From Candidatus Latescibacterota bacterium (GTDB lineage Bacteria; Krumholzibacteriota; Krumholzibacteriia; WVZY01; JAKEHA01), in assembly GCA_963707635.1 (NCBI GenBank), contig OY970173.1, positions 1,472,001 through 1,536,000 on the forward strand: 64,000 bases of DNA. Direction: 5' to 3'. This document shows, in pieces, positions 9,995 through 31,980 of this stretch. Under the pieces are notes generated by a model. It did not search any database. It was given only the letters and a program-made list of their open reading frames with translations, and was not told where the DNA came from. Numbering within the stretch: position 1 is the stretch's first letter; each line of letters opens with the position of its first letter. Both the position numbers and the translations under genes were made by a program.

Positions 9995-10304
9995 ACGAGC
10001 GCCGCCGGGCAACGAAGACGTCCCCGTCCTTTTCCAATATCACCAGATCGTAGCCGTGCCCGCGGATACTCCCGTCTACGCGGCACAGGGTCCGGGCCCG
10101 CCCGCAATGCGTGACCGCGATCCCCAGGACGAACGGATCTCCGCGGGGAGTCACCCGCACCGTGGTATCGAGGGTGAGGGTCGCCACCGGCAGGATCCAC
10201 CGGTGACGCAGCGGACCACCGCACTGCGGGCAGGTGTCCTGCGCGTGCAGATAGACGTGTCCGCGTGCGCAGGCGAAGGCGGCGAGCCGGGCGGGGCGCG
10301 TCAA
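9939..10304 (-). CDS. DUF35-type Zn-ribbon/OB-fold protein (thiolase partner)
   Basis: CARGH...CPQC Zn ribbon followed by an OB-fold-like region; TTG start at 10304 overlaps the thiolase stop (TTGA); 56-bp convergent overlap with the SBP gene. Confidence 0.7.
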   Translation of the reverse strand: MTRPARLAAFACARGHVYLHAQDTCPQCGGPLRHRWILPVATLTLDTTVRVTPRGDPFVLGIAVTHCGRARTLCRVDGSIRGHGYDLVILEKDGDVFVARRRSFTESNRATRPTRPVARRS

Positions 10305-11428
10305 TTCGCCTCCAGCACGAAAGCGTAGTTGTCGCGCGCTACGCCGCCGGCGCTTTGCACCAGCGCCACGCGCGCGTTCGGATGCTGGCGCTCGCCCGCG
10401 GCCCCGGTCAACTGGGCGTGCACTTCGGCCAGGGAAGTGAGCCCGCACACGCCGATTGGATGCCCGCGCGCCTTCATCCCGCCGGACGGATTCACCGCGT
10501 GCGTCCCGCCGATTCCGAGCTCGCCGCGGGCGAGCGCCCGCCACGCGTCGCCGTAGGGAAAGAATCCCATGGCCTCGAGATTCATGAGCTCGAAGGGCGC
10601 GAACGCGTCGTGGATCTCCACCACGTCGACCTCACGCGGTCCGCGTCGCGCCATCGCGAACGCCTCCCGCGCGGCGGTCGTCGCCGCCCGGAACATCCCC
10701 GGGTGGGCGCGCTCGTGAAAGCGCGGCGCGTCCAAACCGGAGCCCCACCCGCGAATCGTCACCTCGCCCGAGTCGCGCGAGAGCACGCAGGCGGCGGCGC
10801 CGTCCGACATTGGGGCGCAGTGGTGGCGGCGCAGCGGGTCGCAAACCCGCGGGCTCGTGCGCACCTCGTCGAGGGTCACGGCGCGGCGAAAGTGGGCGAG
10901 GGGATTGGCGACGGCGTGGGCGTGGTTCTTGATCGCGACCTCGTCGAAGGCGCGCATCGGAACCGCGAAGCGCGACGCGTACGCGCGCGTCGCCAGCGCG
11001 GCGAGGGCCGGCAGCGTCGCGCCGTGATGCTGCTCGATCGCGTCGGACACGCGCGGCGCCAGCAGGCCGGCGGCGGTGCCGGCGTCGACGTGGGTCATCT
11101 TCTCGCACCCGAGGACCAGTACGTCCCCGTCGACGGTGTCGAGCCTCCGCAGGGCGGCGAGCAGCGCTTCGCCCCCGGTTCGAAGCGGTCCCTCGACCGG
11201 GATCGAGCCGCAGCCGGCGAGCGCCAGCCCCTCGCGGACCAGCGCCGCGGCATCCTCCACGCCGCACAACTCGCGCGGCGCAAAGGACGCCAGACAGACG
11301 GCGGCGATGCGGTCGGCGTCGATTCCGCCTATCGCGCGGGCGACACTCTCGCGCAGCAGCGCCTCATAATCGGCGTCGTGGCGACCGATGCGCGTCATCC
11401 ACGCCGATTTCACCTTGATTTCGCCCAC
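10301..11428 (-). CDS. Thiolase-fold protein (SCP2/archaeal-type) lacking the canonical cysteines
   Basis: GCEKM, APMSDGAAA, EIHDAF, NPSGG and GHPIG motifs; start taken as GTG 11428, 6 nt after a -10 box. Confidence 0.88.
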   Translation of the reverse strand: MGEIKVKSAWMTRIGRHDADYEALLRESVARAIGGIDADRIAAVCLASFAPRELCGVEDAAALVREGLALAGCGSIPVEGPLRTGGEALLAALRRLDTVDGDVLVLGCEKMTHVDAGTAAGLLAPRVSDAIEQHHGATLPALAALATRAYASRFAVPMRAFDEVAIKNHAHAVANPLAHFRRAVTLDEVRTSPRVCDPLRRHHCAPMSDGAAACVLSRDSGEVTIRGWGSGLDAPRFHERAHPGMFRAATTAAREAFAMARRGPREVDVVEIHDAFAPFELMNLEAMGFFPYGDAWRALARGELGIGGTHAVNPSGGMKARGHPIGVCGLTSLAEVHAQLTGAAGERQHPNARVALVQSAGGVARDNYAFVLEAN

Positions 11429-11434
11429 GGTTTG

Positions 11435-11464
11435 AGCATAAATAAGCCGCGATTTTGCTGTCAA
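11435..11464 (-). promoter_or_regulatory. sigma70 promoter for thiolase/DUF35, probably leaderless
   Basis: TTGACA (11464-11459), 18 bp, TATGCT (11440-11435); GTG start 6 nt downstream. Confidence 0.65.
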
Positions 11465-11486
11465 CGAACCAGACCACTCCCGAAGC

Positions 11487-11912
11487 ATGATTCATCCTGT
11501 CGCTGTTGCCGCGTTGCTCGCGGGCCTGTGCGCCCAGCTCCTCAAGGTGCTGATCGAAACCGTGCGTACGCGCCGCTCGAGCGTGCTGCGCTTCTTCGAC
11601 AACGGCGGTATGCCGTCGTCCCATACCGCGCTCGTGACCGTTCTGACCATCGGTGTAGCCCGTGACGTGGGCGTACAATCGCCCCTGTTCGCCGTGACCC
11701 TGCTCTTCAGCCTGTACTTCGTCTTCGAGGCGGCGGGGCTTCGCCAGGAAGTCGGCAACCAGGCTCGACTCTTGAACGATCTCGTGGACGAACTGCGGCA
11801 TACGCACCACGTCGACCGGCGGCGGCTCAAGGAACTGGTCGGCCACACCTGGGGCGAGGTGGTCGGGGGATTCGTCTGCGGTCTGGCGGTGGCGGCGATC
11901 GCCTACCGATAG
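11487..11912 (+). CDS. Divergent PAP2 family membrane protein (DUF212)
   Basis: GGMPSSH, EAAGLRQEVG and LKELVGHT motifs. Confidence 0.9.
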   Translation: MIHPVAVAALLAGLCAQLLKVLIETVRTRRSSVLRFFDNGGMPSSHTALVTVLTIGVARDVGVQSPLFAVTLLFSLYFVFEAAGLRQEVGNQARLLNDLVDELRHTHHVDRRRLKELVGHTWGEVVGGFVCGLAVAAIAYR

Positions 11913-13978: not shown

Positions 13979-16560
<2,582 letters not shown>

Positions 16561-16564
<4 letters not shown>

Positions 16565-16590
16565 CGCGGCGCATGGCGTTGAGGTATAAT
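16561..16590 (+). promoter_or_regulatory. sigma70 promoter of C25 protease gene 1
   Basis: TTGACG, 18 bp, TATAAT; about 200-nt leader to GTG 16800. Confidence 0.75.
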
Positions 16591-16799
16591 CTTTTCCAGT
16601 ATTCGGCGTGGGCATGGCCCCGCCGGTGCTCTGGCCGGGTCGAGACAGGCCCCCCCGGTTCGGCCCGAACAGTGTCGACAACATCGTTCCACCATCACCG
16701 CTGACTCGATCCCGTCCCACCGACTGGCGACATTGCCGCAGCCGCGTGGTTCAGGGACAGAGCGCACTAGGTCGCATCTGCAGCGTCGTCGGAGGGTCC

Positions 16800-19700
16800 G
16801 TGCGCATCACCACGTGTCGCCTGCGCCTCGCCTGTTCTGTGCTCGCATTGTCCGCCTTGTTCTTGCCCCGCGGCGCGCGCGGCGGGGAGATGTCCTACGT
16901 CCTCGAGACGCCGGCCGCGTCGATCCAGCTCGAGCGTGACGCCGTCGCCGATCGCGCGGTGGCGAGCGACCCGCAGTTCTATTACGTGGCCGAGGCCGGG
17001 TTGCCGGCGCTCCCGTACCGCGTGATCAGCCTGCTGCTCCCGCCGGGCGAAGCCGTCGACCGGTTCGAGATCGTCTCCGGTCCGCCGACGGTGATCGCGT
17101 CGTCGGTGCGACTGGCCGTCGCGCCGCCCGCGGAGGGTCCGGACGGCTTGCCCGCGAGTACCTCGACGGCCGCGGTTTGGAACGAGACGGCGTATCCCTC
17201 GGAGGGCGCGGTCTACCTGGGTACGGGATATCTGCACGGTTGCGCGATCGCGAGTTTTGCGGTGTACCCGGTTTCGATCGCGGCGGGAACGCTGACGGTC
17301 AACGAGCGGGTGGAATTGCGCGTCACCACGCGCGGCGACGACCCGACCCGCCGCGTCGCCCGGCGCTTGCGTTATCGCGAAGGATTCGAGGAGACGCTGC
17401 ACCGGCGCCTCGAGGGGCTGGTGGTCAACACCGACGAAATGTCGGCGTACGCGGCGACGGCCACGCGCGTCCCGGAAGCTTCCGGTGGATTCAACCCGAC
17501 GTCACTTCCGGCCCTCGAAGGCAGCGGCGTCGACTACGTGATCATCACCAACGATTCCCTCGCGGCCGCGTTCCAGATCCTGGCGGACTGGAAGACGGCG
17601 AAGGGCGTTCGCACCGTCGTTCGCACCACCGAATGGATCCAGGCCAACTACCGCAACGGGGTCGACCCGGCCGAGACCATCCGCACCTTCATTCTCGACG
17701 CGTATCAGAAGTGGGGGATCACGTACGCGCTGCTGGGCGGCGACGCGGAGCAGGTACCGGTGCGGCTCGGCGCGTCGAAGTATCTGGGCACGAAGGATCT
17801 TCCCGCCGACATGTACTTCGGGTGTCTGGACGGCGACTGGAACGCCGACCACGACAAGCTCTTCGGTGAGGGCGGTCCCACCGACCAGGCCGACCTCTAC
17901 CAGGAGGTGTACACCGGGCGCCTGCCGGCGGTGAGCGTGGCCACCGCGAGTATCATGATCAACAAGATCATGAGCTACGAAACGCCGGCCGACCCGTCCT
18001 ACACCGGAACCGCGCTGCTGCTCGCCGAGGTGCTGTTTCCGACCGATTGGGACGGAAGCGCGCCCATTACCCAGGACGGAGCCGCCATCGCGGAGTTTGC
18101 GTACGCCCTGGCCCTGGACGATCCGGCGCTCACGGTCTCGCGCATGTACGAGAACAATATGCCGTACAACGTCGCGCCGGAGACGAGGGCCTCCACGCTT
18201 GCCGCCCTCAACGCCGGCGTCGACCAGGTCAATCACATCGGCCACGGTTTTCGGTTCAACATGTCGGTCGGCGACGGCAGCGTGGTGAACGCCGACGCCG
18301 ATGTGCTCACCAACACCGACCGCTATTCCAACATGTATCTGCTCAACTGCACCGTCGTCGCCTACACCTACTTCTGCCTGGGCGAGCATTTTCTGCTCAG
18401 CCCCGCCGGCGGAGCCGTGTCCGTCATCGGCGCCAACGAGAGCGCGTACCCGCTGATATCGCAGCCGTACATGAACGAGTACTACGACCTCCTGATCAAC
18501 GACGATGTCGTGCACATCGGCGAGGCGTTCGCGCGCTCGCGCGAGCCCCGCACACCGATTGCCTCAAACGGGGACAATGCCGACCTGTGGACGCATTACA
18601 TCTACACCATCCTGGCGGACCCGGAGATGCCGCTGTGGACCGCGCCGGTGCAGCCGCTGGTCGTGTCGCACCCAACGCTCATGCAACGGGGCACCACCAA
18701 CGTGACCGTCCACGTGAACGACGCAGGCGGTCCGGTCGCGGGTGCAACGGTGTGTTTGTCGAAGGGAAGCGAGAGCTACGGGGTAGGCACCACCGACGCG
18801 AACGGCAACGTGGCCCTCAAGACGACGGCGGAATCCGCAGGCAGTGTTCGCGTCGTCGCGACCGCTCTCAACCGCTCGCGGTATGAAGGGTCGATTTATG
18901 TGCTGCCTTCGATTCCCGCGTACGTGTCCTACGTCGGCCTGGACGCGGACGATGATGCAGTCGGCGCGACCAGCGGCAACGGCGACGGCGTGATCGATGC
19001 CGGCGAAGTGATCGAGTTCATCACAGAGGTCGGCAACACCGGGAACGCCGACGCGTCCGGCGTGACGCTCACGCTGCGTTCGAGCACGAGCGGCGTTCTG
19101 GTCGAAGACAGCACCGCCCTGGCGGGGACCGTGGCGGCGGGCGACACCTCGAGCGCGCTCGATTCGTTCCGTGTCCGCTTTGCGCCCGGGATCGCAGATG
19201 AGACGCCCGCCGCCTTCACCCTGGTGGTTAACGCGGACGACGTGCCGGGGTGGACAGGCTCCTTCAAGAAACTGGTGCACGCGCCCGCGATCGAGTTCGA
19301 CGTGCTGCGCATCGACGACGCTACGACCGGAAACGGCGACGGCCTCGTCCAGGCGGGCGAGAATGTGCGCGTCTACTACACGATTCGCAACTTCGGCACC
19401 GGGGCCGCGTACGGACTTGCCGCGACCCTCACGGATCTCGAGGGCGCGTTCACGATCACGAACGGCGCGTCCGGGTACGCGAGCATGACGACGGCGGGAG
19501 CGGCGGAAAATGCGACCGGGTTCGCCCTGAGCGAGAGCAGCGTGGCGACGGAGCACGATCTGCGCCTGGCAGTGACGGACGCCCACGGCAATGCCTGGGA
19601 GAAGGTATTCGAGTTGCGTCCGCCGCCGGCGCCGGTGAACCTGACGTTCAACCCGAGTGTCGGGCCGACCCGGCTGCAGCTGGCCTGGGACGCTCCGCCG

Positions 19701-21758
19701 GGCTCGACCGACGTGAATCGGTATCGCGCCTACCGGTCGCTGACGGCGGGGGGACCCTACACGGTGGCGACGGTGGACCCGGTACGGCACACGACCTTCC
19801 TCGACACCGGCCTGCAGCCCACGACCCGCTACTACTACCGCGTCAGCGCGGTGGACGTGTCGGGCAACGAGAGCGCGCTGTCCGCCGAGTACAGCGGCAG
19901 CACCAACCCGGCGCAGGTCGTGGGGTGGCCGATCAAGATGAGCGTGGAGACGGTGAGTTCGCCGGTGATGGGGGATATCGACGGCGACCACGACTTCGAG
20001 CTCATCCAGGGCGACGGCAAGCTGTACGCGTGGCACCACAACGGAGTGGAGCTGCGCGACGCCGACGCGAACGCGCAGACCTGGGGACTCTTCAGCACGC
20101 TCGGGAATTCGTTCGTCTCGCACCCCGCGCTGGCCGAGATCGACGCCGTCAACGGTCTCGACATCCTGGCGGCGTCGCGCGACACCAGGGAGGTGTTCGC
20201 GTTCAACTATACCGGCAACGTGATCGCCGGGTGGCCGCGGCCGGTTGAGAACGCCATCCGTGCGGGCCTGGTGGCGGGTGACATCAACGGGGACGGTCAG
20301 AAGGAAGTAATCGCCATCGACGAGAAGGGCGTGCTCTACGTGTGGAGGGCCAACGGCGCCGAGTATCGCAACGGCGACAACAACGCCGCCACCCAGGGGA
20401 TATTCCGCAAGTTCGGCGGGTGTGTCTACCAGTACACGTGTCCCGCCATCGGGAACTTCGACGCCGACGGCCTCAACGAGATCGTCGTGGGCACGCAAGG
20501 CGATTCCGTGTTCGTTCTCAACGAAAACGGCACCCTCGTGCCGGGGTGGCCGAAGGCGTTCAGCTCCGACATCTCCGGCAGCATCGCGCTGGGCGACATC
20601 GACGGCAACGGCGACCTCGAAATGGTGGTGTGCGAATACGGCGGCAACGTGTGGGCGCTCAATCACGACGGGACCACAATGTGGATGCAGTGGTTTCCGA
20701 ATCAGCTCACCTTCGGACCGTCCCCGGCGCTGGGGGACCTCGATGGCGACGGAAAACTCGAGGTGGTCGTTCCGAGCAAGAACCGCAACCTTTACGCGAT
20801 CCGGTACAATGGCGGCTATCTCCCCGGGTGGCCGGTCGTGTATACGAGCCAGCTCTGGACGGAGTCGTCGCCGGTGATCGCGGATATCAACAACGACGGT
20901 TCGCTCGACGTCGTGCTCGGCGACGAGACCCGTTTCATCAACGGCTGGGACGCCGCCGGCCAACCGCTGGCCGGATTCCCGCTCGCGACTGGCGACGCGG
21001 TGCGCGCCACGCCGATGATCGCGGACCTCGACAAAGACGGCGACGTCGAAGTGATCGCCGCCGGGTGGGACAAGACCGTCTATGTCTGGGATTTCCCGGC
21101 GATGTTCAACCCGCTGATGGCGCCGTGGTCGAAGTTCCACGCCAATCTCTACAACGATGGTAACATTCACACGCCGGTGCCGACGCCGGTGCGCGCGGTC
21201 TCGTTCAATTTCACGCGGCGGGATGCGGGAATGGAACTGGTGTGGGCGGTGCCCGCAGAGGCGGGCGGGGAGTTCACGGTGAGGCGGGCGGAAGTGGTGG
21301 GCGGAGAGACGGGGGGATTCGCGCTGGTGGCGGCGGGGGTGGGGACCGGTGTGGACGGGATGGTGCGGGTGGTGGACCGGGGCGTGGAGATGGGGTCGCG
21401 CTACGTGTATCACCTGGAGAACACGGGGGGGACGTTGATCCACGAGACGGCGGGGTTGTACGTGCCGGTGACGCGGGCGGTGCTGGGTCAGAACTACCCG
21501 AACCCGTTCAACCCGGTGACAAAGATCGAGTACTGGGTGCCGGAGGGATCGGGCAAGACGCCGGTGAGCCTGGTGATCTACGATGTGCGGGGGGCGCGGG
21601 TGCGGACGGTGGTGAACGAGGGGCAGGCGGCGGGCCGGTACGTGGTGGAGTGGGACGGGCGGACGGAGGGCGGCGCGCCGGCCGGATCGGGCGTATACTT
21701 CTACAAGCTTCAGACGCCCGGTTTTTCGGATGCCCGCAAGATGGTGCTCCTGAAGTGA
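16800..21758 (+). CDS. Secreted C25 (gingipain-family) cysteine peptidase with propeptide, Ig-like, FN3, FG-GAP repeats and FlgD/T9SS-like C-terminal domain (copy 1)
   Basis: GGAGG plus GTG 16800; signal peptide; GLPALPY propeptide; YALLGGD, DMYFGCLDG and GRLP; catalytic HIGHG and LNC; many DxDGDG repeats; tail QNYPNPFNP...WDGR...SGVYFY...KMVLLK. Confidence 0.88.
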   Translation: MRITTCRLRLACSVLALSALFLPRGARGGEMSYVLETPAASIQLERDAVADRAVASDPQFYYVAEAGLPALPYRVISLLLPPGEAVDRFEIVSGPPTVIASSVRLAVAPPAEGPDGLPASTSTAAVWNETAYPSEGAVYLGTGYLHGCAIASFAVYPVSIAAGTLTVNERVELRVTTRGDDPTRRVARRLRYREGFEETLHRRLEGLVVNTDEMSAYAATATRVPEASGGFNPTSLPALEGSGVDYVIITNDSLAAAFQILADWKTAKGVRTVVRTTEWIQANYRNGVDPAETIRTFILDAYQKWGITYALLGGDAEQVPVRLGASKYLGTKDLPADMYFGCLDGDWNADHDKLFGEGGPTDQADLYQEVYTGRLPAVSVATASIMINKIMSYETPADPSYTGTALLLAEVLFPTDWDGSAPITQDGAAIAEFAYALALDDPALTVSRMYENNMPYNVAPETRASTLAALNAGVDQVNHIGHGFRFNMSVGDGSVVNADADVLTNTDRYSNMYLLNCTVVAYTYFCLGEHFLLSPAGGAVSVIGANESAYPLISQPYMNEYYDLLINDDVVHIGEAFARSREPRTPIASNGDNADLWTHYIYTILADPEMPLWTAPVQPLVVSHPTLMQRGTTNVTVHVNDAGGPVAGATVCLSKGSESYGVGTTDANGNVALKTTAESAGSVRVVATALNRSRYEGSIYVLPSIPAYVSYVGLDADDDAVGATSGNGDGVIDAGEVIEFITEVGNTGNADASGVTLTLRSSTSGVLVEDSTALAGTVAAGDTSSALDSFRVRFAPGIADETPAAFTLVVNADDVPGWTGSFKKLVHAPAIEFDVLRIDDATTGNGDGLVQAGENVRVYYTIRNFGTGAAYGLAATLTDLEGAFTITNGASGYASMTTAGAAENATGFALSESSVATEHDLRLAVTDAHGNAWEKVFELRPPPAPVNLTFNPSVGPTRLQLAWDAPPGSTDVNRYRAYRSLTAGGPYTVATVDPVRHTTFLDTGLQPTTRYYYRVSAVDVSGNESALSAEYSGSTNPAQVVGWPIKMSVETVSSPVMGDIDGDHDFELIQGDGKLYAWHHNGVELRDADANAQTWGLFSTLGNSFVSHPALAEIDAVNGLDILAASRDTREVFAFNYTGNVIAGWPRPVENAIRAGLVAGDINGDGQKEVIAIDEKGVLYVWRANGAEYRNGDNNAATQGIFRKFGGCVYQYTCPAIGNFDADGLNEIVVGTQGDSVFVLNENGTLVPGWPKAFSSDISGSIALGDIDGNGDLEMVVCEYGGNVWALNHDGTTMWMQWFPNQLTFGPSPALGDLDGDGKLEVVVPSKNRNLYAIRYNGGYLPGWPVVYTSQLWTESSPVIADINNDGSLDVVLGDETRFINGWDAAGQPLAGFPLATGDAVRATPMIADLDKDGDVEVIAAGWDKTVYVWDFPAMFNPLMAPWSKFHANLYNDGNIHTPVPTPVRAVSFNFTRRDAGMELVWAVPAEAGGEFTVRRAEVVGGETGGFALVAAGVGTGVDGMVRVVDRGVEMGSRYVYHLENTGGTLIHETAGLYVPVTRAVLGQNYPNPFNPVTKIEYWVPEGSGKTPVSLVIYDVRGARVRTVVNEGQAAGRYVVEWDGRTEGGAPAGSGVYFYKLQTPGFSDARKMVLLK
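21198..21662 (+). repeat. C-terminal cassette repeat, copy A
   Basis: Aligns without gaps to 26190..26654 (offset 4992), about 16 mismatches counted by eye. Confidence 0.92.
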
Positions 21759-21791
21759 CACGCCCCTGTATACAAACAGAGGAGACGAAGT

Positions 21792-24700
21792 ATGTGGCTG
21801 GGTCGGGATAATAGCGTTCGGGTGCTGGTGCCGGTGTTCTTGGCGGCGATCGTTTCCTCGGGGGGTGCGGCGACGCTGTCGCACACCGTCATCCTCTCGA
21901 GCGAACGCGTTCGACTGTCGCCCGGCCCGGGTGGACTGAGCGTGTCGGTCGACGACCGTGCGTACACGACGCTTGCGGATCCAGGACTGCCGGCGCTCCC
22001 GTTTCGCGTGGTGAGCTTCGTGCTGCCTCAGGGGGAAGACGTCGGCGGCTTTCGGGCCGTCGAGTCCGGCCGGCGCGTGATCTCCGCCGGGGCGGAGCTG
22101 GCCGTGGCCGGCCCGGCGCGCAGCGAGGACGGCGGCGAAGGCGTCGGCGCCGCCATGGCGTCGCGAGCCGGCGGGCTGTATCCGTCGGAGCGCGCTCGCC
22201 TGCTCGGGGTGGGCCGGCTGCACGGCTACACCATCGCGAGCTTCGCGGTATTCCCACTCCAGGTCGAAGATACGGAACTGACGGCGTCGGATCGGATCAC
22301 GCTCGAAGTGGAGACGGTGCCGTCGACCCGCCCGGCGGTCACGTTGCAGCGCGCCCGCGCCGCGGTCCGCCAGCGCGCGCGCGCCGAACTGGCGAGTCTG
22401 GTAGTCAATCCCGCCGACGCGGATGCCTACCTGTTCGCGGAACCCGTCGTGCCGAAGCCGCAAGGCGGGTTCAGCCCGACGTCGTTTCCGTCGCTGGAGG
22501 GGAGCGCGGTGGACTACGTGATCGTCACGCCGGACTCACTCGCCGCGGCGTACCAGGCCCTCGCGGACTTCAAGACCCGCAAGGGCGTGCCCACCGTCGT
22601 TCGCACGGTTGAATGGATCCAGGCCAACTACCGCAACGGTTCCGACCTGCAGGAGACGATCCGCAACTTCGTGATCGACGCCTACCAGAAGTGGGGCATC
22701 ACCTACCTTCTCCTCGGCGGCGACACGAGCGAGGTTCCGGTTCGGTTCGCGTACAGCGGCTTTTACGACGGCGGTCGTTTTCTGCCCGTCGACATGTACT
22801 TCGGCTGCCTCGACGGTGACTGGAACGACGACCACGACGAGGTCTTCGGTGAGGCGGCACCTTACGACAACCCCGACCTCTACGCGGAGGTCTACGTCGG
22901 CCGGATGCCGAGTTCGTCGGTTGCCGAAGTGAACATGCTGATCGGAAAAGTGATCGCTTACGAGACGCCCCTCGACATGACCCTCGGCCAGAAGGTCCTG
23001 CTGCTCGGTGAGATCCTCTTTCCGACGAACTGGACGCCTCCCCAGGTGATCACGCTCAACGGGCCCGATCTCATCGAACCCATTTACAACAATGAAATGC
23101 TCCCGGTGGCCGGACTGAACGCGCTGCGCATGTACGAGACCGAAGAGTTGTACCCGGGCGCGGTGGACGAGAACCGCGCGGCGGTGATCGCCCAGCTCAA
23201 TGCCGGCTACAACCACGTGGTTCACATCGGCCACGGGTACCGCTTCAACATGTCGGTGGGCGACGTGAGCATCGTCAACGCCGACGCGGACGCGCTCACC
23301 AACGGAAACCGCCTCTCGTGCCTGTATTTCCTGAATTGTACGGGTGCCGCCTACAACTACTACTGCCTGGCCGAGCACTACCTGCGCAACCCGAACGGCG
23401 GCGCCGTTTCGGTGGTCGGGGCCAACGAAAGCGCGTTTCCGAACGCGTCCACCGCCTACATGAACGAGTACTACCACCGTGTGTTCACCAGCGGGGTGAA
23501 GCACATCGGGGAAGCGTTTGCGCGCTCGAGGCTGCCGCGGACGGTGCTGGCGGAACTCGGCGACAACGTCGACCTGTGGACGCACTACATCTACACCCTG
23601 CTCAGCGACCCCGAACTTTCCCTGTGGACCGGCCCCGTGACCACGCTGAGCGTGAACCACCCGGCGAGCGTGTCGAAGGGGACCCATTCGATTCTGGTGA
23701 CCGTGACGAGCGGCGGGAACCCGGTCGATTCCGCGACGGTGTGCCTGTCGAAGGCGGACGAGGACTACGAGGTGGGGGTCACGAACGGGGCGGGCCAGGT
23801 GACGCTGTCGTTCCGCGCGGAAACGACGGGCAACATCGACGTCGTGGTCACCGGGCCCAACCACGCCCGCCACGAAAGCACGATCAGCGTGGGCGGGACG
23901 GGCGCCTATGTGGCCATCAGCTCGATGACCATCGACGACGACGGCGCGGGAGGGACGAGCGGGAACGGCAACGGGGTGATCGATGCGGGAGAGACGGTGG
24001 ACCTCGCGATCACGCTCAAGAATACCGGGACCGCGGCGACCAACAACGTGACCGCGACCCTGCGCAGCACCGACGCCGGGGTGACGCTCGTCGACAGCAC
24101 GGCGGGGGTGGGCGTCATCGCCGCGGCCGGGACCGCGCTGGCCACGGGTGGGGTGCGCGTGACGTTCTCGTCCTCGCTCGGGGACGCCCACGCCGTGCCC
24201 TTCACGCTCGTGATCAAGAACGACGGCACCCCGACCTGGACCGACGAGTTCAAGAAAGAGGCTCACCGTCCCGTGCTGGACCTGGTGAAGCTGCGGGTGG
24301 ACGACACTGGGACCGGCAACGGCAACGGCATCGTGGAGAACGGCGAGCAATTCAAGCTATTCTACAAGGTGAAGAACTTCGGGACGGGGGCGTACCCGGG
24401 AGGGAACGGCACCGTCAGCGACCTCGACACGGCGTTCACGCTGGTGGACCCGACCGACCCCTACCCCGTCATCGCGGCGCACGGGCAGGCGGAGAACACG
24501 GGCGGGTTCGTGCTGGTGGAAGCGGACGCGTCGGTGGAGCACCGGTTGCGGATATCGATCGTCGACCTGTACGGGCGGGCGTACGTGGACACGGTGGAGC
24601 TGCGGGTGCCGACGGCGCCGAGCGCGCTCGTGATCGACCCCAGCCTGGGACCGGACCGGTTGAAAGTGACGTGGACGGCGAGTCCGAGCCCGGACGTGGC

Positions 24701-26750
24701 ACACTACAATATTTACCGTTCGTTGAACGCGGGCGGTCCGTTCGTGCTCGCCAACGCGGACCCGGTTGCGCACGCCATTTTCGTCAACGTCGGCCTGGCG
24801 CCGAACACCGCCTACTATTTCAAGGCCAGCGCCCTCGACGAGGACGGCAACGAGAGCGGGATGTCCGCCGCCGCTTCCGGGAGCACCAACCCGAAACAGA
24901 TGTCCGGCTGGCCGATCGCGATGAAGGCGGAGACCAGCTCGTCACCGGCGGTGGGCGACATCGACGGCGACGGCGACAACGAGATCGTCGTGGGCGCCGA
25001 CCGCGTCTACGCGTGGCACGCGAATGGAATCGAAATGGTCGACGGCGACAACGATGCCCAGAGCTGGGGCGTGATTTCCCCGCTCGGCAGCTCGTTCGTG
25101 TCGAGCGTGGCGCTGGCCCGCATCGACCATGAGCCCGGGCTCGACATCGTGGCGGCGTCGCGCGACTCGCGCGAGGTCTTCGTATTCAACTACCAGGGTG
25201 ATGTGCTGACGGGGTGGCCCCAGGAGGTGGAGAACACGCTGCGCGCGGGAATGGTGGTCGCCGACCTGGATGGAAACGGGCTCTTCGAAATCGTCGCGGT
25301 CGACGAGAAAGGTGTCATCTACGCCTGGAAGGCGGACGGCACCGAGTTCATCGACGGCGACGCGAACCCGGCGACGCCGGGCGTCTTCTATCGCATGCCC
25401 AACTGCACGTTCAACTACTCGACACCGGCGGCGGCCGACATCGACAACGACGGCAAGGACGAACTGATCGTGGGGTCGCAGGGTGATCTCGTTTACGTAT
25501 TCAACGAGAACGCGAGCATGTCCCCCGGCTGGCCGTTCGCGCTGGTTAGCGACATCGCGGGCAGCCCGGTGGTGGGCGACGTCGACGCGAACGGCGATCT
25601 CGAGATCGCTTTCAATGAGGCGGGCGGGTCGCTGTGGGTCCTCAACCACGACGCCACCACGCTGATGTATCAGTACTTCACCAACAACCCGGCGAACAAT
25701 TTCTTTTCGACCTCGCCGGCGCTCGGCAATATCACCGGCGACGCGAAGCTCGAGATCGTGGTGGCGAGGGCGAGCGGGAAGATCTACGCGATGTCCAGCA
25801 CCGGCGTGGTGCTGCCCGGCTGGCCGGTGAATTACTCGGTGACGACCTACAGCGAATCGTCGCCGATTATCGCCGACCTGGACGGCAACGGATCTCCGGA
25901 CATCGTTATGGGTGACGAAACCCAGTTCATCGATGCGTTCAATGTGAGCGGCCAGTCGATTGCGGGTTTTCCGTTGGCGACCAGCGATGCGATGCGCGGG
26001 GTTCCGACCGCGGCGGATGTGGACCAGGACGGGAGCGTGGATCTGGTGGCGGCGGGCTGGGACAAGAATGTCTACGCGTGGGACTTCACGGGGACATGGA
26101 ATCCGGCGAATGCGCCGTGGCCGCGCTTCCACGCCAACCTGCACAACAACGGACGCATGGGATTCGTGGTGCCCACGCCGGTGCACGGAGTCTCGTTCAA
26201 CGTCACGCGGCGGGATGCGGGAATGGAACTGGTGTGGGCGGTACCCACGGAAGCGGGCGGCGAGTTCACGGTGAGGCGGGCGGAAGTGGTGGGCGGAGAG
26301 ACGGGGGGATTCGCGCTGGTGACGGCGGGGGTGGGGATCGGTGTGGACGGGATGGTGCGGGTGGTGGACCGGGGTGTGGAGATGGGGTCGCGCTACGTGT
26401 ATCACCTGGAGAACACGGGGGGGACGTTGATCCACGAGACGGCGGGGTTGTACGTGCCGGTGACACGCGCGGTGCTGGGCCAGAACTACCCGAATCCGTT
26501 CAACCCGGTGACAAAGATCGAGTACTGGGTGCCGGAGGGATCGGGCAAGACGCCGGTGAGCCTGGTGATCTACGACGTGCGGGGGGCGCGGGTGCGGACG
26601 GTGGTGAACGAGGGGCAGGCGGCGGGCCGGTATGTGGTGGAGTGGGACGGGCGGGACGACCGGGGGACGCGGGCCGCCTCGGGGGTCTACTTCTACCGTA
26701 TGACGGCGTCCGGTTTCGCGGACGTCCGCAAGATGGTGTTGATGAAGTAG
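21792..26750 (+). CDS. C25 gingipain-family peptidase with FN3, FG-GAP and FlgD/T9SS-like CTD (copy 2)
   Basis: Same architecture as copy 1; HIGHG and FLNC; RBS GAGGAG. Confidence 0.88.
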   Translation: MWLGRDNSVRVLVPVFLAAIVSSGGAATLSHTVILSSERVRLSPGPGGLSVSVDDRAYTTLADPGLPALPFRVVSFVLPQGEDVGGFRAVESGRRVISAGAELAVAGPARSEDGGEGVGAAMASRAGGLYPSERARLLGVGRLHGYTIASFAVFPLQVEDTELTASDRITLEVETVPSTRPAVTLQRARAAVRQRARAELASLVVNPADADAYLFAEPVVPKPQGGFSPTSFPSLEGSAVDYVIVTPDSLAAAYQALADFKTRKGVPTVVRTVEWIQANYRNGSDLQETIRNFVIDAYQKWGITYLLLGGDTSEVPVRFAYSGFYDGGRFLPVDMYFGCLDGDWNDDHDEVFGEAAPYDNPDLYAEVYVGRMPSSSVAEVNMLIGKVIAYETPLDMTLGQKVLLLGEILFPTNWTPPQVITLNGPDLIEPIYNNEMLPVAGLNALRMYETEELYPGAVDENRAAVIAQLNAGYNHVVHIGHGYRFNMSVGDVSIVNADADALTNGNRLSCLYFLNCTGAAYNYYCLAEHYLRNPNGGAVSVVGANESAFPNASTAYMNEYYHRVFTSGVKHIGEAFARSRLPRTVLAELGDNVDLWTHYIYTLLSDPELSLWTGPVTTLSVNHPASVSKGTHSILVTVTSGGNPVDSATVCLSKADEDYEVGVTNGAGQVTLSFRAETTGNIDVVVTGPNHARHESTISVGGTGAYVAISSMTIDDDGAGGTSGNGNGVIDAGETVDLAITLKNTGTAATNNVTATLRSTDAGVTLVDSTAGVGVIAAAGTALATGGVRVTFSSSLGDAHAVPFTLVIKNDGTPTWTDEFKKEAHRPVLDLVKLRVDDTGTGNGNGIVENGEQFKLFYKVKNFGTGAYPGGNGTVSDLDTAFTLVDPTDPYPVIAAHGQAENTGGFVLVEADASVEHRLRISIVDLYGRAYVDTVELRVPTAPSALVIDPSLGPDRLKVTWTASPSPDVAHYNIYRSLNAGGPFVLANADPVAHAIFVNVGLAPNTAYYFKASALDEDGNESGMSAAASGSTNPKQMSGWPIAMKAETSSSPAVGDIDGDGDNEIVVGADRVYAWHANGIEMVDGDNDAQSWGVISPLGSSFVSSVALARIDHEPGLDIVAASRDSREVFVFNYQGDVLTGWPQEVENTLRAGMVVADLDGNGLFEIVAVDEKGVIYAWKADGTEFIDGDANPATPGVFYRMPNCTFNYSTPAAADIDNDGKDELIVGSQGDLVYVFNENASMSPGWPFALVSDIAGSPVVGDVDANGDLEIAFNEAGGSLWVLNHDATTLMYQYFTNNPANNFFSTSPALGNITGDAKLEIVVARASGKIYAMSSTGVVLPGWPVNYSVTTYSESSPIIADLDGNGSPDIVMGDETQFIDAFNVSGQSIAGFPLATSDAMRGVPTAADVDQDGSVDLVAAGWDKNVYAWDFTGTWNPANAPWPRFHANLHNNGRMGFVVPTPVHGVSFNVTRRDAGMELVWAVPTEAGGEFTVRRAEVVGGETGGFALVTAGVGIGVDGMVRVVDRGVEMGSRYVYHLENTGGTLIHETAGLYVPVTRAVLGQNYPNPFNPVTKIEYWVPEGSGKTPVSLVIYDVRGARVRTVVNEGQAAGRYVVEWDGRDDRGTRAASGVYFYRMTASGFADVRKMVLMK
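26190..26738 (+). repeat. C-terminal cassette repeat, copy B
   Basis: Matches copy A over 26190..26654 and copy C over 26248..26738. Confidence 0.92.
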
Positions 26751-26777
26751 TGGTTTGTGATGCGCGGGCGTCGGAGG

Positions 26778-26807
26778 TTGACTCCGCCGCACCGCGCGGG
26801 GTATACT
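26778..26807 (+). promoter_or_regulatory. sigma70 promoter of C25 protease gene 3
   Basis: TTGACT, 18 bp, TATACT; about 210-nt leader to ATG 27021. Confidence 0.7.
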
Positions 26808-27020
26808 CAATCCTCCTCGAATCGCAGGCACGACAACCGCGGGGGCTATAAGGCACATCGCGAACTGCTACCAACGACCGTTGTTTTTCTCTCCATAATC
26901 AGGCCAACGAAGACCTTGTCCGAGCGCCGGAGCGGCGTGCGCCGCCGGCACGGACCCGAACCATCGAGCGTTGATCGCCCGGCGCTTGCGCCGGCCGCAC
27001 GGGTTGCTACGGGAGGACTC

Positions 27021-30000
27021 ATGATCTCGCGACACACAGCCTGCTCTTTCATCCTCGGCGCGTCCCTGCTGGCCCTCGGCCTGTGTCCCGCGCCCGCGAG
27101 GGCCGCGAGTCTTTCGATCCGGGTATCGGTTCCGCGCGACCCGGTCAGCGTAAAAGCGTTACCCCAGGGCGACGTCATCCACGTTCCGGGGGCGGGCTGG
27201 GAGTCGCTGCAGGACCCGGGGCAGCCGGAGATCCCGTACCGCCTCGTGCGCGTGCTCCTTCCCCAGGGAGAAACGGTGGAGAGTTTCGCGGTGGCGTCGG
27301 CCGAGCCGCGACTGGTTCGTACCTACGTCCGCCCCGTGCTCGCGGGCCCGATTGAGGCGGACGACGGCGGCGCCGTCACGACACCGTCGTTGCTGGCGGG
27401 CGTGGCGGGGTCATCGTTCCCGCGGGAACGCGCCGTTCTCCTGGGTTCCGGGATCCGCCATGGCTACACGGTGGCGACCTTTGCCGTGTTTCCGCTCGAG
27501 ATTCGGGACAGTGCCCTCTACGCGTTCGACGAGCTCGAGTTGTCGATTCAAACCCGCGCGTCCACGATTGCACCCGCTGTGCGCCAGCGGTTTCGCGAGG
27601 GATTCCGCGCGCACGAGCGCGCGCGCGTCGCCGCCGAAGTCCTCAACCCCGAAATGCTGAACGCCTACACGTTCTCCGAGACGGTGGTGGCGAAGGCCCC
27701 CGGCGGGTTCAACGTGTCGGTGTTCCCTTCGCTCGAGGGCAGCGCGGTGGACTACGTGATCATCACGCCCGACGCGTTCGCCGCCACCATGCAGGCGCTG
27801 GCCGATTGGAAGACGCTGAAGGGTGTGCCGACGGTGGTCAGAACGACGGAGTGGATCGCCGCGAATTACCGCAACGGATCCGACCTCGCCGAGACCATCC
27901 GGAACTTCGTGATCCAGGCCTACGCGAAGTGGGGGACTACCTACGTGCTGCTCGCGGGAGACGTCGAGCAGGTGCCCGCGCGGCTCGCGTGGAGCGCCTA
28001 CTACGACGACGGTCGCTTATTCCCGGTCGACATGTACTACGGCTGCCTCGACGGTGATTGGAACGCGGACCACGACGCCGTCTTCGGCGAGTTCGGCACC
28101 GACGACGCGGACCTGATTGCGGAAGTGTACGTCGGCCGACTCCCGATGCGAACGACGACCGAAGCGAGCGTCATGATCGACAAGGTGATGGATTACGAGC
28201 GACCGGACTACGCGACCTACGCGAACAAGGTCCAGGTGCTGGCCGAGGTCCTGTTCCCGTCGAACTGGGAACCCAACGACGAGATCTCGCTCAACGGTGC
28301 CGACATCGCCGAATTCGTTCGCACTCAGTGGCTGAATGACCCTGCGCTGAAGGTGACGCGCATGTACCAGACCGACAGCCTGTTCCCGGGCTCACTCCCG
28401 GAGACGCGGCAAGCCGCCCTCGATTCGATGGCCACGGGGTACAACCACGTGATCCACGTTGGGCACGGCTTCCGCTTCAATATGTCGGTGGGAGACGCGA
28501 GCATCGTCAACGCCGATGCCGACGCGCTGGCCAACACCGGGCGGCTCAGCAACCTGAACCTGCTCAACTGCACCGCCGTCGCCTACACCTACGAATGTCT
28601 GGCGGAGCATTTCCTGCGCAACCCCACGGGAGGGGCGGTGTCGGTCGTCGGCTCCAACGACAGCGCGTTTCCGACCGTGGCCGCGGACTACATGTACGAG
28701 TACTACCGGCTGCTCTTCAACCAGAACATCACCCACCTGGGCGAGACCTTCGCGCTCTCCCGCGAATCGCGCACCTCATTCGCGCTCGGCGGCGACAACA
28801 TCGACCGCTGGACGCACTTCGCCTACACCCTGCTCGGGGACCCCGAGATGCCGTTGTGGACGCGATCCGTGGCACCCCTCGCCGTTGCCAAGCCCGCCAG
28901 CGTCGGCAAGGGAAAGACCGCGATTCTGCTGACCGTGACCAGCGGAGGCAACCCGGTCGATTCGGCGCGGGTGTGCCTCTCGAAGGGGGACGAGGACTAC
29001 GGCGTTGGCACGACCAACGCCTCCGGCCAGGTCACTCTCAACTTTCGCGCCGAGACCACGGGCCTCATCGACGTGGTGGCGACCGGGTTGAATTACAAGC
29101 GCTACCAGGGGACGATCACCGTGGCTGGCACCGGCTCGTACCTGAGCATGCATTCGATGACCATCGACGACGACAACGTGTCCGGGACGAGCGGCAACGG
29201 CAACGGCGTGATCGAAGCGGGCGAGACCGTGGACTTTGCGATCAGGGTCAGAAACACGGGCACGGCGACGTCGCCCGGCACACTCAACATCCGCCTGCGC
29301 TGCCCTGCCGGCGGTGTCACCATTTCGGACAGCACCGCGAGCATTTCGGGCACCATCCCGGCCGGAGGCAATTCGCTGGCTACGGGCGGCGTGCGTGTCG
29401 TGTTCCCCTCCTCGCTGGCCGACGAGCAGGCAATTCGCTTCCTGTTGATCATACGGTCCAACACGACGGAGGTCTCACGGGATGATTTCAAGAAAGAGGT
29501 GCACCGGCCGAAGCTTGACCTGGTGAAGCTGCGAGTAGACGACACCGGAACGGGCAACGGCAACGGCATCGTGGAGGACGGCGAGCAGTTCAAGCTGTTC
29601 TACAAGGTGAAGAACTTCGGGACGGGAACCTACCCGGGCGGGAACGCCACCCTCACCGACCTGGACGCCGGGTTCACGCTGGTGGATCCCACCGATCCGT
29701 ACCCCACCATCCTGCCTCACCTGCAGGCGGAAAACACGACCGGGTTCGTGCTGGTGGAGCCGAACACGTCCACGGAGCACCGACTGCGGCTGTCGATCAT
29801 CGACACATACGGGCGCGCGTACGTGGACACGCTGGAGCTGCGGGCACCAGTGCCGCCCGCCGACCTGACGGTCGACCCGAGCCTCGGGCCGGACCGCCTG
29901 AAGCTGACCTGGCCGGTGAGCGCCAGCCCCGACGTCGCGCACTACAATATCTACCGTTCGCTCAACGCGGGCGGGCCGTTTGCGCTCGTCAACGGGGACC

Positions 30001-31980
30001 CGGTGGCGCACACTCTTTTCATCAACACGGGCTTGAGCTCCACCACCAAGTACTATTACAAGACGAGCACGCTCGACGCGTCGGGCAACGAGAGCGCTCT
30101 CTCCGCGCTTTACTCCGGAAGCACGAACCCGGCCCAGCTGGCCGGGTGGCCGATCAACATGCTCATGGAAACGACGTCGTCGCCGGCAGTGGGCGACATC
30201 GACGGCGATGGCGACAACGAGATCGTGGTCGGGGACAAGTACGTCTACGCCTGGCACGCCAACGGCATCGAGATGCAGGACGGAGACAACGACGCCCTGA
30301 CCTGGGGACCCATCAACAAGGACGGCGATTCGTTCATCTCGCACGTGACGTTGGCGCAAATCGATCAACTGCCCGGTCTCGACATCGTGGCCGCCTCGCG
30401 CAACACCCGACAGGTGTTCGTATTCGACCATACCGGCGCGGCGCTGCCCGGCTGGCCGCAGCCGGTCGAGAACATGATCCGTGCCGGCGTGGCGGTCGGC
30501 GACCTCGAAGGTGACGCGATCCCCGAGATCGTCGCGATCGATGAGCTGGGGGTCATCTACGTCTGGAGGCCCAACGGCACCGAACTCATCGACGGCGACT
30601 TCAACCCGGCGACCCAGGGCGTCTTCAAGCGTCTCACGGGCGCGACGTTCCACTATTCCACGCCCGCGCTTGCCGACATCGACAACGACGGCAGGGATGA
30701 GATCATCGTGGGCACGCAGGCGGACCAGCTGTACGCGTTCAACAAAGATGGAAGCAGCGTGCCCGGGTTCCCGGTCGCGCTCGGCTCGGACATCGCCGGC
30801 AGCGCTGCTGTGGGCGATGTTGACGGCGATGGTGATCTCGAGATCGTCGTCAACACGGCGGGCGGAACGGTGAAGGCGCTTCACCACACCGGTGCCACTC
30901 TGTGGAGCCGCAACTTCGTGAACGGGCTGTTCTTCGGCCCCTCTCCCGCGCTGGCGGACGTCGACGCCGACGGTAAGCTGGAGACGTTCATCCCGTCCGC
31001 CGACGGCAAGCTCTACGCGATCGACTTCACCGGCGCCGACCGGGCCGGTTTCCCGGTGACGTACTCGGCCGCGACCTACACCGAGTCATCGCCGATCGTC
31101 GCGGACATCGACGGCGACGGGCTGCACGACGTCGTGCTGGGCTCCGAGGAAAAGAACGTGTGGGCGTGGAATCGGAGCGGTGTGGCGCTTGACGGTTTCC
31201 CGCTGACAACCAGCGACGCGATGCGCGGGGTTCCGACGGCGGCGGACGTGGACCAGGACGGGAAGCGTGGACCTGGTGGGGGCGGGGTGGGACAAGAACG
31301 TCTATATTTGGGACTTTACGGGGACGTGGAATCCGGCGAACGCACCGTGGCCGCGCTTCCACGCCAACCTGCACAACAACGGGCGGCTCGGGTTCCTGAT
31401 GCCAGTGCCCGTGCAGGGAGCGTCGTTCGTCTTCGCGATTCACGATGAGGGGATGGAGCTGGCGTGGAAGGTTCCCGCGGAAGCGGGCGGGGAGTTCACG
31501 GTGAGGCGGGCGGAAGTGGTGGGCGGGGAGACGGGCGGATTCGCGCTGGTGACGGCGGGGGTGGGGATCGGCGTGGACGGGATGGTGCGGGTGGTGGACC
31601 GGGGCGTGGAGATGGGGTCGCGCTACGTGTACCACCTGGAGAACACGGGGGGGACGTTGATCCACGAGACGGCGGGGTTGTACGTGCCGGTGACACGCGC
31701 GGTGCTGGGCCAGAACTACCCGAATCCGTTCAACCCGGTGACAAAGATCGAGTACTGGGTGCCGGAGGGATCGGGCAAGACGCCGGTGAGCCTGGTGATC
31801 TACGACGTGCGGGGGGCGCGGGTGCGCACGGTGGTGAACGAGGGGCAGGCGGCGGGCCGCTACGTGGTGGAGTGGGACGGGCGGGACGACCGGGGGACGC
31901 GGGCCGCCTCGGGGGTCTATTTCTATCGCATGACGGCGTCCGGCTTCTCGGACGTCCGCAAGATGGTGCTCGTCAAGTAG
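27021..31980 (+). pseudogene. C25 gingipain-family peptidase (copy 3) with a +1 frameshift at 31263-31264
   Basis: GGAGG plus ATG 27021; HVGHG and LNC; GACGGGAAGCGTG versus GACGGGAGCGTG in copy 2, with the copy2-copy3 offset changing from 5229 to 5230; the C-terminus continues in ORF 31267..31980. Confidence 0.85.
31478..31968 (+). repeat. C-terminal cassette repeat, copy C
   Basis: Aligns without gaps to 26248..26738 (offset 5230); a further shared block at 25981..26150 and 31210..31380. Confidence 0.92.

Follow-up and report, generated by a model that had tools for sequence, protein, structure and literature searches.

In the genome of an uncultured Ca. Krumholzibacteriia bacterium, three tandem genes for C25 (gingipain-family) peptidases, A, B and C, end in nearly identical tails. 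These tails are likely kept alike by repeated gene conversion, with a local excess of G over C as a likely footprint of this process, perhaps left by MutS passing C:C mismatches. The paralogs are old, and their shared tract codes for a linker followed by an Ig-like domain and the greater part of a T9SS-type sorting tail (Table 1). All positions refer to the window, the entire 64,000-nucleotide stretch of contig OY970173.1 that was analysed.

Table 1 Features of the peptidase array, in window coordinates
Feature	Position	Strand	Description
Gene A	16608..21758	+	Peptidase_C25, Ig/fn3, FG-GAP propeller, Ig-like domain and T9SS-type C-terminal domain; ORF counted from the first GTG
Homogenised tract in A	21176..21662	+	From the PTPV linker to the WDGR motif; 96% to B; GC skew about +0.4
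Gene B	21792..26750	+	Architecture as gene A; 1652 aa
LDLVKLRVDD block in B	24258..24545	+	Apparently older or partial B/C tract; 84% to C
Homogenised tract in B	25980..26738	+	Shared with A: 26168-26654; shared with C: 25980-26150 and 26248-26738
VPTPV linker in B	26169..26183	+	Modelled as a coil with low confidence; tracts involving A recurrently have their left edge here
Ig/fn3-like beta-sandwich (B coordinates)	26193..26438	+	Weakly conserved; within the tract
T9SS type A sorting domain of B	26487..26738	+	TIGR04183 over cut-off
Gene C	26757..31980	+	Architecture as gene A; two reading frames owing to a +1 frameshift
Internal-block copy in C	29478..29780	+	Counterpart of the LDLVKLRVDD block of B
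Homogenised tract in C	31210..31968	+	Last-blade block 31210-31380 and core 31478-31968
+1 frameshift site in gene C	31264..31266	+	One-base offset versus gene B within the B/C block

Three tandem peptidases with a homogenised tail

All three proteins match PF01364 (Peptidase family C25) at 186-199 bits, against a cut-off of 23, and contain H-x-G-H-G and L-N-C motifs, recognised by motif reading, which may represent the His-Cys catalytic dyad of this family. The C-termini of A, B and C match the T9SS type A sorting domain (TIGR04183; 30.7, 31.9 and 33.4 bits, cut-off 23), and the proteins are predicted T9SS type A cargo. The genome encodes homologues of SprA (TIGR04189, in a 2098-aa frame) and PorV. 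PF14349 had no match in the genome, nor in any control. An identity of A, B and C with PorU was ruled out, given 91, 95 and 74 bits, respectively, with the sortase profile NF033707, under its cut-off of 420. In a Foldseek search, the model of the tail matched nothing beyond generic tandem Ig/fn3 folds (TM 0.24-0.37), among which PorU ranked 9th. The VPTPV linker of B is a possible candidate for the sorting-signal cleavage region. A GGAGG site and a signal-like stretch suggest that the true start of A likely lies near 16800. The true start of C is likely the ATG at 27021. The gene calls in our scripts are crude ORF picks that include some false frames.

Along the paralogs, near-identity is confined to a bounded tract. 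The gene bodies are 62, 63 and 71% identical at the nucleotide level (AB, AC and BC, respectively), versus 97, 96 and 98% in the tract, in agreement with the diverged catalytic and propeller regions noted in a preliminary description of this DNA. The ungapped 465-nt stretch between A (21198-21662) and B (26190-26654), in which about 16 mismatches had been counted by eye, contains exactly 16; B 26248-26738 and C 31478-31968 differ at 14 of 491 positions, and A 21256-21662 differs from C at 15 of 407. The edges are staggered, as reported: the segment 26190-26247 of B is common to A and absent from the part shared with C, and the full B span shows 33/549 mismatches to C. An additional block (25981-26150 and 31210-31380) is shared by B and C only, with 15 mismatches in 170 nt and a one-base offset near 31264-31266. 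The claim that synonymous sites are homogenised too also holds: four-fold sites of the tract are 92-94% identical between copies (in the permutation analysis, 78/85 versus 208/396 in the body), and for each of the three pairs, the observed segment score was reached in none of 2000 shuffles. The internal block around LDLVKLRVDD, likewise described as shared between B and C, is indeed shared (83.5% identity, 45/273 mismatches), but only 25 of its 39 four-fold sites are identical, compared to the same 208/396 across the body. Going by its sequence, it is an older or weaker tract, and its raised B/C identity is seen in this genome alone among the seven compared. The permutation test, the trees described below and the TIGR04183 match all support the original proposal of patchwise gene conversion of a secretion or sorting module.

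The longest exact matches among the three pairs are just 89, 80 and 194 nt, so the tails do not stem from a single collapsed consensus. An assembly artefact, be it collapsed repeats or bleeding of the consensus from copy to copy, is nevertheless an explanation to be weighed: indel-type errors are present, with independent contigs disagreeing at 31266 and in several places in 16533-16857, and no read or contig among the public-run data (short contigs from related strains, with a share of words of 0.30 at best) spans a whole copy. In particular, one base at 31266 is missing from an independent contig of run X1 (159 nt, 31143-31302, depth 4.2, 1 mismatch), and the reading frame of gene C is open in all six relatives with a complete array; by these sequences, the +1 frameshift is probably an assembly error. 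In the same contig, however, sequence specific to C runs on into the B/C block. The 14-16 sites at which the copies differ show gene-specific patterns, nine further genomes repeat the homogenisation with sequences of their own, and assembly error could not produce a G skew at silent sites. We consider an artefact extremely improbable.

It had also been suggested that the tail is a mobile C-terminal cassette grafted onto many secreted proteins genome-wide. A related tail does end 106 ORFs of the genome, and in one lagging/leading gene pair 544 kb apart, a tail of 85-88% identity, G-rich on the coding strand of both genes, is joined to bodies of about 55%. However, the genome BLASTN that was to count the carriers gave long matches above 80% only for the three array copies, and the closest tail outside the trio is 64-68% identical. 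Every species has its own version of the tail, and other local gene clusters homogenise their own, different tails; homogenised tails sit in local clusters save for the one distant pair. For the array tail, a mobile cassette is thus largely refuted, with a negligible residual probability. The G-over-C skew, the genus-wide conservation and the frameshift in gene C were overlooked in the preliminary description.

Concerted evolution across the genus

Of the 13 genomes of the genus in which at least two copies cover the tract, 10 show conversion, a count over kin that are not independent of one another. Each of these 10 homogenises the same tract with its own sequence, mostly with the same staggered edges. 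Among the rows shown, tract identity is 87-100% within genomes versus 54-75% between genomes; in the gene bodies, this relationship is reversed, with orthologs (66-76%) above paralogs (58-71%), and in IQ-TREE trees the tract groups by genome and the body by gene. These sequence comparisons indicate that the array tails undergo concerted evolution by gene conversion; tail conversion among paralogs is in itself ordinary. No homogenised tract was found in the tandem pairs of G020, G045, G047, G050 and G055. Of 25 gene copies with a truncated 3' side, three are cut inside the tract by the bounds of the fetched sequence, and 15 of the other 22 stop within residues 1397-1621 of B, in a sample biased by the N-terminal query.

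Of the 11 converted pairs that involve A, 9 have the left edge of the tract at the linker; of the 8 converted B-C pairs, 6 have it in the last propeller blade. It seems very likely that the conserved sorting domain would provide the homology for recombination between copies 5-10 kb apart, that tracts would spread upstream through the weakly constrained Ig-like domain, and that they would halt where paralog-specific propeller sequence starts, be it through loss of homology or through selection. Selection for a common sorting or partner-binding surface, with conversion merely the means of holding the tails identical, would fit the recognised sorting domain and the recurrence of the same region and edges in 10 of the 13 genomes, but appears unlikely, given that G003, G014 and G006 retain the array with tails only 58-73% alike, that conservation is lowest in the Ig-like part (46% at the amino-acid level among unconverted A orthologs, versus 75% for C25), that the sorting domain often varies from copy to copy in its last 30 residues, and that silent sites are homogenised as well.

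G skew accompanies conversion

Four-fold GC skew ranges from +0.42 to +0.90 in 24 converted copies and from -0.07 to +0.15 in 10 of the 11 unconverted ones, the exception being the C copy of G015 at +0.40 (26 sites); distant D paralogs span -0.24 to +0.35. The two states coexist within single genomes, namely, G005 (A -0.01 versus B/C +0.48) and G011 (A +0.12 versus B +0.53 and C +0.44). A rank test of 8 converted copies (one per genome) versus 10 unconverted copies gave p 0.0004, with G015_C, G008, G009, G020 and the D paralogs omitted and kin that are not independent, so that we rely on the listed values instead. G occupies 63-69% of third codon positions in tracts versus 37-40% in bodies, and third-position skew is +0.38/+0.33 in converted versus -0.11/-0.05 in unconverted copies, with little change at first and second positions. 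In the B/C-only block of this genome, the G:C counts are 21:7 in B, 25:5 in C and 14:13 in A. The same pattern is found in G012 and, more weakly, in G013; the skew tracks the conversion edges of this block in 3 of 5 genomes, and in G005 and G009 the block is converted yet unskewed.

Genome-wide, the ten 400-nt windows with the strongest skew fall in near-identical repeats, which were located by k-mer and diagonal scans. We compared leading and coding strands in this genome, in targeted clusters of relatives and in 1.75 of the about 3.3 Mb of G013. For leading-strand repeats of at least 95% identity, the G share is 0.83 versus 0.51 expected from amino-acid content in this genome, and 0.755 versus 0.525 in the scanned part of G013. 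Of 20 leading clusters examined in G000 and G013, eight lack the skew, some repeats are recently homogenised yet unskewed, and in G012 one leading-strand repeat gene of 306 bp is rich in C and T. Among the 11 lagging clusters, the G share never reaches 0.75 and drops below 0.35 only in a doubtful ORF; one cluster is moderately G-rich (0.60-0.70). Strongly skewed repeats have four-fold A:T counts of 80:51 and 44:16, versus a ratio of about 0.93, with copies counted separately. A predicted C-to-T gain at two-fold sites is seen in this genome (0.238 versus 0.196) but reversed in G013 (0.143 versus 0.240). The 2:1 allele spectrum of four three-copy genomes, from which sites with the more diverged G012_B as the odd copy were omitted, shows majority G at 10 sites and majority C at 5, which is not significant (p 0.30).

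The skew extends to tufA/tufB, at +0.70 versus -0.16 and -0.10 in the neighbouring fusA and rpoC, and tuf skew is above that of the flanking genes in all 27 class loci with flanks. The lone unskewed tuf (L090 of G008) is 74% identical to the tuf of this genome and is probably a contaminant; another tuf copy in G008 reaches 90% identity, with G112:C30. As a cause of the skew, translational selection for G-ending codons was rejected, with single-copy translation genes near tuf at -0.23 to +0.39 versus 0.70 for tuf itself.

Origin of the skew

It is probable that the skew arises from conversion and fades once conversion lapses. The opposite order, in which local biased mutation first yields a G-rich tail and low-complexity G-rich DNA or G-quadruplexes then promote conversion, was proposed by the GRINS authors (PMC8256042). 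The comparative data are correlational, and each of the three tracts here contains relaxed G4-like motifs. Such motifs are, however, absent from the converted tracts of G002, G013, G005 B/C and G015 B, and present in the unconverted A copies of G005, G006 and G014. Furthermore, tuf pairs convert across bacteria whatever their composition (PMC6053082) and are skewed here when their single-copy neighbours are not. Together with the skew tracking the B/C-block edges and the existence of recently homogenised but unskewed repeats, this makes a skew that precedes conversion rather improbable. A G-quadruplex-driven hotspot was rejected as a separate candidate, as motif presence does not track conversion.

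For a skew that follows from conversion, we tentatively propose a strand-polar heteroduplex combined with a MutS mismatch filter. The heteroduplex would retain the leading or coding-sense strand of the recipient and obtain the opposite strand of the donor, as in lagging-strand gap repair. A C-to-G change would then present C:C, which MutS would repair poorly, and a G-to-C change G:G, which would be repaired well, with the net effect that G would ratchet up on the retained strand. In E. coli, mismatch repair handles C:C poorly and G:G best (PMC3167615). Mismatch repair also filters tuf conversion by mismatch type, with T/T less well repaired than A/A (PMC5485169). MutS is present in 56 of 61 genomes and NucS scores over its cut-off in none of the 61; MutL and RecO were found in this genome. 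The slight four-fold excess of A over T in strongly skewed repeats is predicted from the mismatch-repair ranking. The leading-strand model would also predict C-rich coding strands in lagging repeats, which among the 11 lagging clusters only a doubtful ORF shows; the tail of the lagging/leading pair 544 kb apart, G-rich on both coding strands, likewise speaks against it.

Comparison with known systems

The array tract resembles the GRINS of Streptomyces PKS genes (PMC8256042), that is, duplicated coding stretches of >500 bp and >80% identity tied to gene conversion, near-identical within but not between genomes, with a strong third-position GC skew and mild Gly/Val enrichment. Scanned in 150-nt windows with a step of 30, an ungapped version of the published windowing, the duplications here measure 570, 660 and 600 bp. 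Mean absolute GC skew is 0.37, 0.34 and 0.31 (GRINS, >0.15) and is strongest at third positions, and the tracts are, likewise, alike within the genome and unlike between homologous clusters. In contrast to GRINS, TA skew is all but missing: its mean absolute values (0.082, 0.081 and 0.085; GRINS, >0.15) lie below those of non-duplicated windows (0.124), and among relatives, converted tracts reach 0.20 in G016 only. The bias here is G over C with a slight four-fold excess of A over T, compared to G+T or C+A in GRINS, and has one sign on the coding/leading strand, without a switch (PMC8256042). It affects secreted protease tails and tuf in a MutS-bearing, NucS-lacking lineage.

Concerted evolution of tufA/tufB similarly involves homogenisation by conversion, tracts near 500 nt and a MutS filter by mismatch type, and the accessible text of these accounts mentions no compositional skew (PMC5485169, PMC6053082). 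The tuf pair of this genome has the same skew as the array tails. Unlike in tufA/tufB, in the array only a domain-bounded part of otherwise saturated paralogs converts, among three copies, and in some species conversion has lapsed.

The rgpA, kgp and hagA genes of Porphyromonas gingivalis are presumably unlinked. They, too, combine C25 peptidases with a T9SS C-terminal domain and carry C-terminal repeats that are identical from gene to gene, to an extent that breaks assemblies, although it is adhesin domains that are common there (PMC5266723), as opposed to the sorting tail of three tandem genes here. The array also differs from the gingipains of that species in its FG-GAP propeller and in belonging to an environmental Krumholzibacteriia lineage.

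Implications

Possibly, GRINS-type skews are footprints of strand-polar gene conversion rather than genetic elements, with the mismatch-repair enzyme setting the letters. If so, MutS lineages, in which pyrimidine-pyrimidine mismatches escape, would drift to G (and slightly to A) on the retained strand, and NucS lineages would drift to G+T; NucS cuts G/T, G/G and T/T only (PMC11109965). The three-gene array would then be the MutS-side natural experiment, in which conversion and skew come and go jointly from species to species and even from one copy to its neighbour. In the GRINS paper, the cause of the skews is stated as unknown and skew is proposed to drive conversion, and the words mismatch, MutS, NucS and tuf are absent from its main text (PMC8256042); a literature search, with most subscription papers outside its coverage, found no paper linking GRINS-type skew to mismatch repair. 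Within a single genus, the array provides orthologous tracts in matched converted and unconverted states, and its pattern favours conversion before skew, the reverse of the order proposed by the GRINS authors. The G-only form slips past the published two-skew filter, and counts of such repeats in MutS-bearing bacteria may therefore be too low. From one genome alone, local GC skew serves as a marker of long-running conversion, and it distorts codon-bias and tuf-based analyses.

Tandem C25 peptidase genes and their tails

The tandem genes A, B and C are flanked by clpB and an acyl-CoA dehydrogenase gene; the genome is a single contig of 3.2 Mb, of which the window covers bases 1472001-1536000. 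Each encodes a Peptidase_C25 domain (186-199 bits), Ig-like domains, an FG-GAP propeller and an FlgD-like, T9SS type A tail, with an fn3 match in A and B. The genome encodes SprA and PorV homologues; identification of A, B or C as PorU was ruled out (74-95 bits versus 420). The +1 frameshift in gene C is likely an assembly error because one independent contig is a base shorter at this site and all six relatives in which the array is complete have an open C frame. Near the beginning of gene A, several single-base indels separate the assembly from independent contigs, which makes the long N-terminal extension of this ORF doubtful.

Coordinates of the genes, repeats and sites discussed
Feature	Sequence	Position
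Gene A	window	16608-21758
Gene B	window	21792-26750
Gene C	window	26757-31980
Gene A start, indels	window	16533-16857
Gene C frameshift (near)	window	31264-31266
Gene B body	window	22450-25900
tufA, tufB (L070)	G000:C1	272437-273621, 288535-289719
Tandem pair L133	G000:C1	2930600-2935104
Repeat protein L135	G000:C1	3068291-3073033
ORF copies L134	G000:C1	779803-792543
Exact repeat L132	G000:C1	1623754-1624529, 1626144-1626919
Paralogs L136, L137	G000:C1	1991788-1994928, 2535995-2539156
Paralog D (L060)	G000:C1	2610897-2613854
About-190-bp repeat	G000:C1	326814-327003, 393874-394071, 570822-571020, 1014142-1014339, 1219268-1219467
About-190-bp repeat, further copies	G000:C1	1235251-1235453, 1303007-1303197, 1308234-1308433, 2626607-2626810, 3170576-3170738
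A-C-B array L023	G002:C77	114300-132500
Gene with C/T-rich repeats	L156 (G012:C2)	8676-11621

The near-identical tract extends over the linker, the first beta-sandwich and roughly the first two thirds of the sorting domain. In an AlphaFold model of the last 215 residues of B (44-sequence alignment, pLDDT 87), a low-confidence PTPV linker precedes two beta-sandwiches, with generic Ig/fn3 fold matches only. By likeness to Prevotella T9SS tails, cleaved within such a linker according to excerpts of PMC11969387, the PTPV linker is a candidate cleavage site.

Concerted evolution of the tail

Genes A and B differ at 16 of 465 nt, the number counted in the preliminary description, B and C at 14 of 491, and A and C at 15 of 407; the staggered edges are also as described there. 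Tract identity is 96-98% versus 62-71% in the gene bodies. Homogenisation extends to silent sites, as described: four-fold sites are 92-94% identical, and the observed score was reached in 0 of 2000 silent-site permutations for each of the three pairs. The internal LDLVKLRVDD block is indeed shared by B and C (84% identity), albeit more weakly than the tail, with only 25 of 39 four-fold sites identical, and its identity is raised in this genome only, among seven compared. In the gene B body, four-fold skew is +0.16, versus +0.03 for A and for C; the difference may be a remnant of earlier conversion between B and C.

The array is conserved within the genus, and the tract is homogenised in 10 of the 13 genomes in which at least two copies cover it; it is not homogenised in the other three (G003, G006, G014), and in G005 and G011 it is limited to B and C. 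In trees, gene bodies cluster by gene, whereas converted copies of the tract cluster by genome, in agreement with the suggested gene conversion, which is recurrent across the genus. The left edge lies at the linker in 9 of 11 converted pairs that include A and at the last propeller blade in 6 of 8 B-C pairs. Constraint is lowest in the Ig-like part, with 46% amino acid identity among unconverted A orthologs versus 75% for C25. This is domain-bounded concerted evolution: the common tail is real and repeatedly converted, and, as conversion, ordinary. Similarly, gingipains, in the consulted part of PMC5266723, are C25 genes with identical C-terminal repeats in common. The A-C-B order in the relative G002 suggests rearrangement inside the array.

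It had also been suggested that the tail might be grafted onto many secreted proteins genome-wide, but it is not spread in this way: BLASTN of the genome recovered only three long copies above 80%, and apart from short motif hits the remaining matches of 70 nt or more do not exceed about 77%. Related tails terminate 106 ORFs; within the trio the tails are 87-95% alike, and none is more than 68% like a tail outside it. Elsewhere, a few local clusters have homogenised tails, each of its own type. The paralogs L136 and L137, 544 kb apart, are about 55% alike in the body but 85-88% over the final 100 codons; both tails are G-rich on the coding strand, although one gene is lagging-strand, and the two could be a former tandem pair or products of long-range conversion. 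A fourth, unlinked paralog on the lagging strand, D, found also in G002, G012 and G013, has an unconverted tail that lacks most of the Ig-like part.

G skew of converted sequences

GC skew of the tract is +0.34 to +0.41 versus about 0 in the bodies (genome SD 0.07), driven by third codon positions. At four-fold sites the skew ranges from +0.42 to +0.90 across all 24 converted copies, four of which offer only 13-23 such sites. Of 11 unconverted copies, 10 lie between -0.07 and +0.15, the exception being G015_C (+0.40 on 26 sites); distant D paralogs span -0.24 to +0.35, and G020 has +0.13/+0.19. The last-blade block common to B and C only is far more skewed in these two genes than in A in three genomes (this one, G000, plus G012 and G013); in G005 and G009 it is likewise converted but lacks the skew. 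The presence of G4-like motifs does not follow conversion status.

The ten most skewed windows genome-wide are near-identical repeats. In leading-strand repeats at least 95% identical, the G share is 0.83 versus 0.51 expected, and 0.755 versus 0.525 in the relative G013 (1.75 of about 3.3 Mb). Skew is strong in 8, moderate in 4 and absent in 8 of 20 leading-strand clusters, and strong in neither direction in 11 lagging-strand clusters. The tufA/tufB genes, 98% identical and 16 kb apart, have four-fold G169:C30 (skew +0.70); the adjoining fusA and rpoC are unskewed. Across the class, tuf skew is positive at 29 of 30 loci, the single non-positive one probably being a contaminant, and exceeds that of flanking genes at 27 of 27. 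G skew is a general trait of tuf in this class.

Other repeats vary. The tandem genes of L133, with about 1.9 kb near-exact in common, show the strongest skew of the genome (four-fold G share 0.94); L135, encoding 1581 aa and combining internal repeats of 672 bp with a sorting-type tail, reaches 0.92. The four dispersed, G-skewed copies of a roughly 160-aa ORF (L134), which presumably resembles the C-terminal portion of a ComM/Mg-chelatase-like ATPase, may be integration scars. At L132, two lagging-strand paralogs that are 77% alike overall have an exact repeat of 776 bp in common, which is unskewed. In a leading-strand gene of G012, the third positions of internal 306-bp repeats are rich in C and T, opposite to the usual skew. 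A dispersed, unskewed repeat of roughly 190 bp, whose ten copies lie in both orientations and are 81-93% alike, may represent a non-coding RNA or a small mobile element.

Possible origin of the skew

We infer that the G skew stems from MutS-filtered, strand-polar conversion. The recipient would retain the leading, coding-sense strand and pair it with the donor's opposite strand, so that a C-to-G change would produce C:C and a G-to-C change G:G. The consulted portions of the cited papers report that mismatch repair in E. coli is most efficient on G:G and very inefficient on C:C (PMC3167615), and that the type of mismatch determines how MutS filters tuf conversion (PMC5485169). MutS was found in 56 of 61 lineage genomes, NucS above the cut-off in 0 of 61, and MutL and RecO in this genome. 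A is in excess over T at four-fold sites, and G over A at two-fold ones; both fit this mechanism, while the two-fold C/T shift is inconsistent from genome to genome. The lack of strong skew in lagging-strand clusters counts against the mechanism, so that either replication or transcription could set the strand, and the 2:1 allele spectrum (majority G versus majority C) is not significant.

The closest known class is GRINS. By the definition in the consulted text of PMC8256042, the tracts lie above the thresholds for length, identity and GC skew but below that for TA skew (0.08 versus 0.15), and therefore work like GRINS without being members. In that text, the GRINS authors describe the cause of skew as unknown and suggest that a skewed composition favours conversion. 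We favour conversion as the cause because skew tracks conversion status, occurs in tuf, pairs of which convert across bacteria (PMC6053082, in part), and is absent from some freshly identical repeats. With NucS, which cleaves G/T, G/G and T/T (PMC11109965, relevant excerpt), the same filter logic predicts G+T GRINS. The A/B/C tails are a G-only GRINS-like variant, of moderate interest, whose built-in controls make the cause of skew testable.
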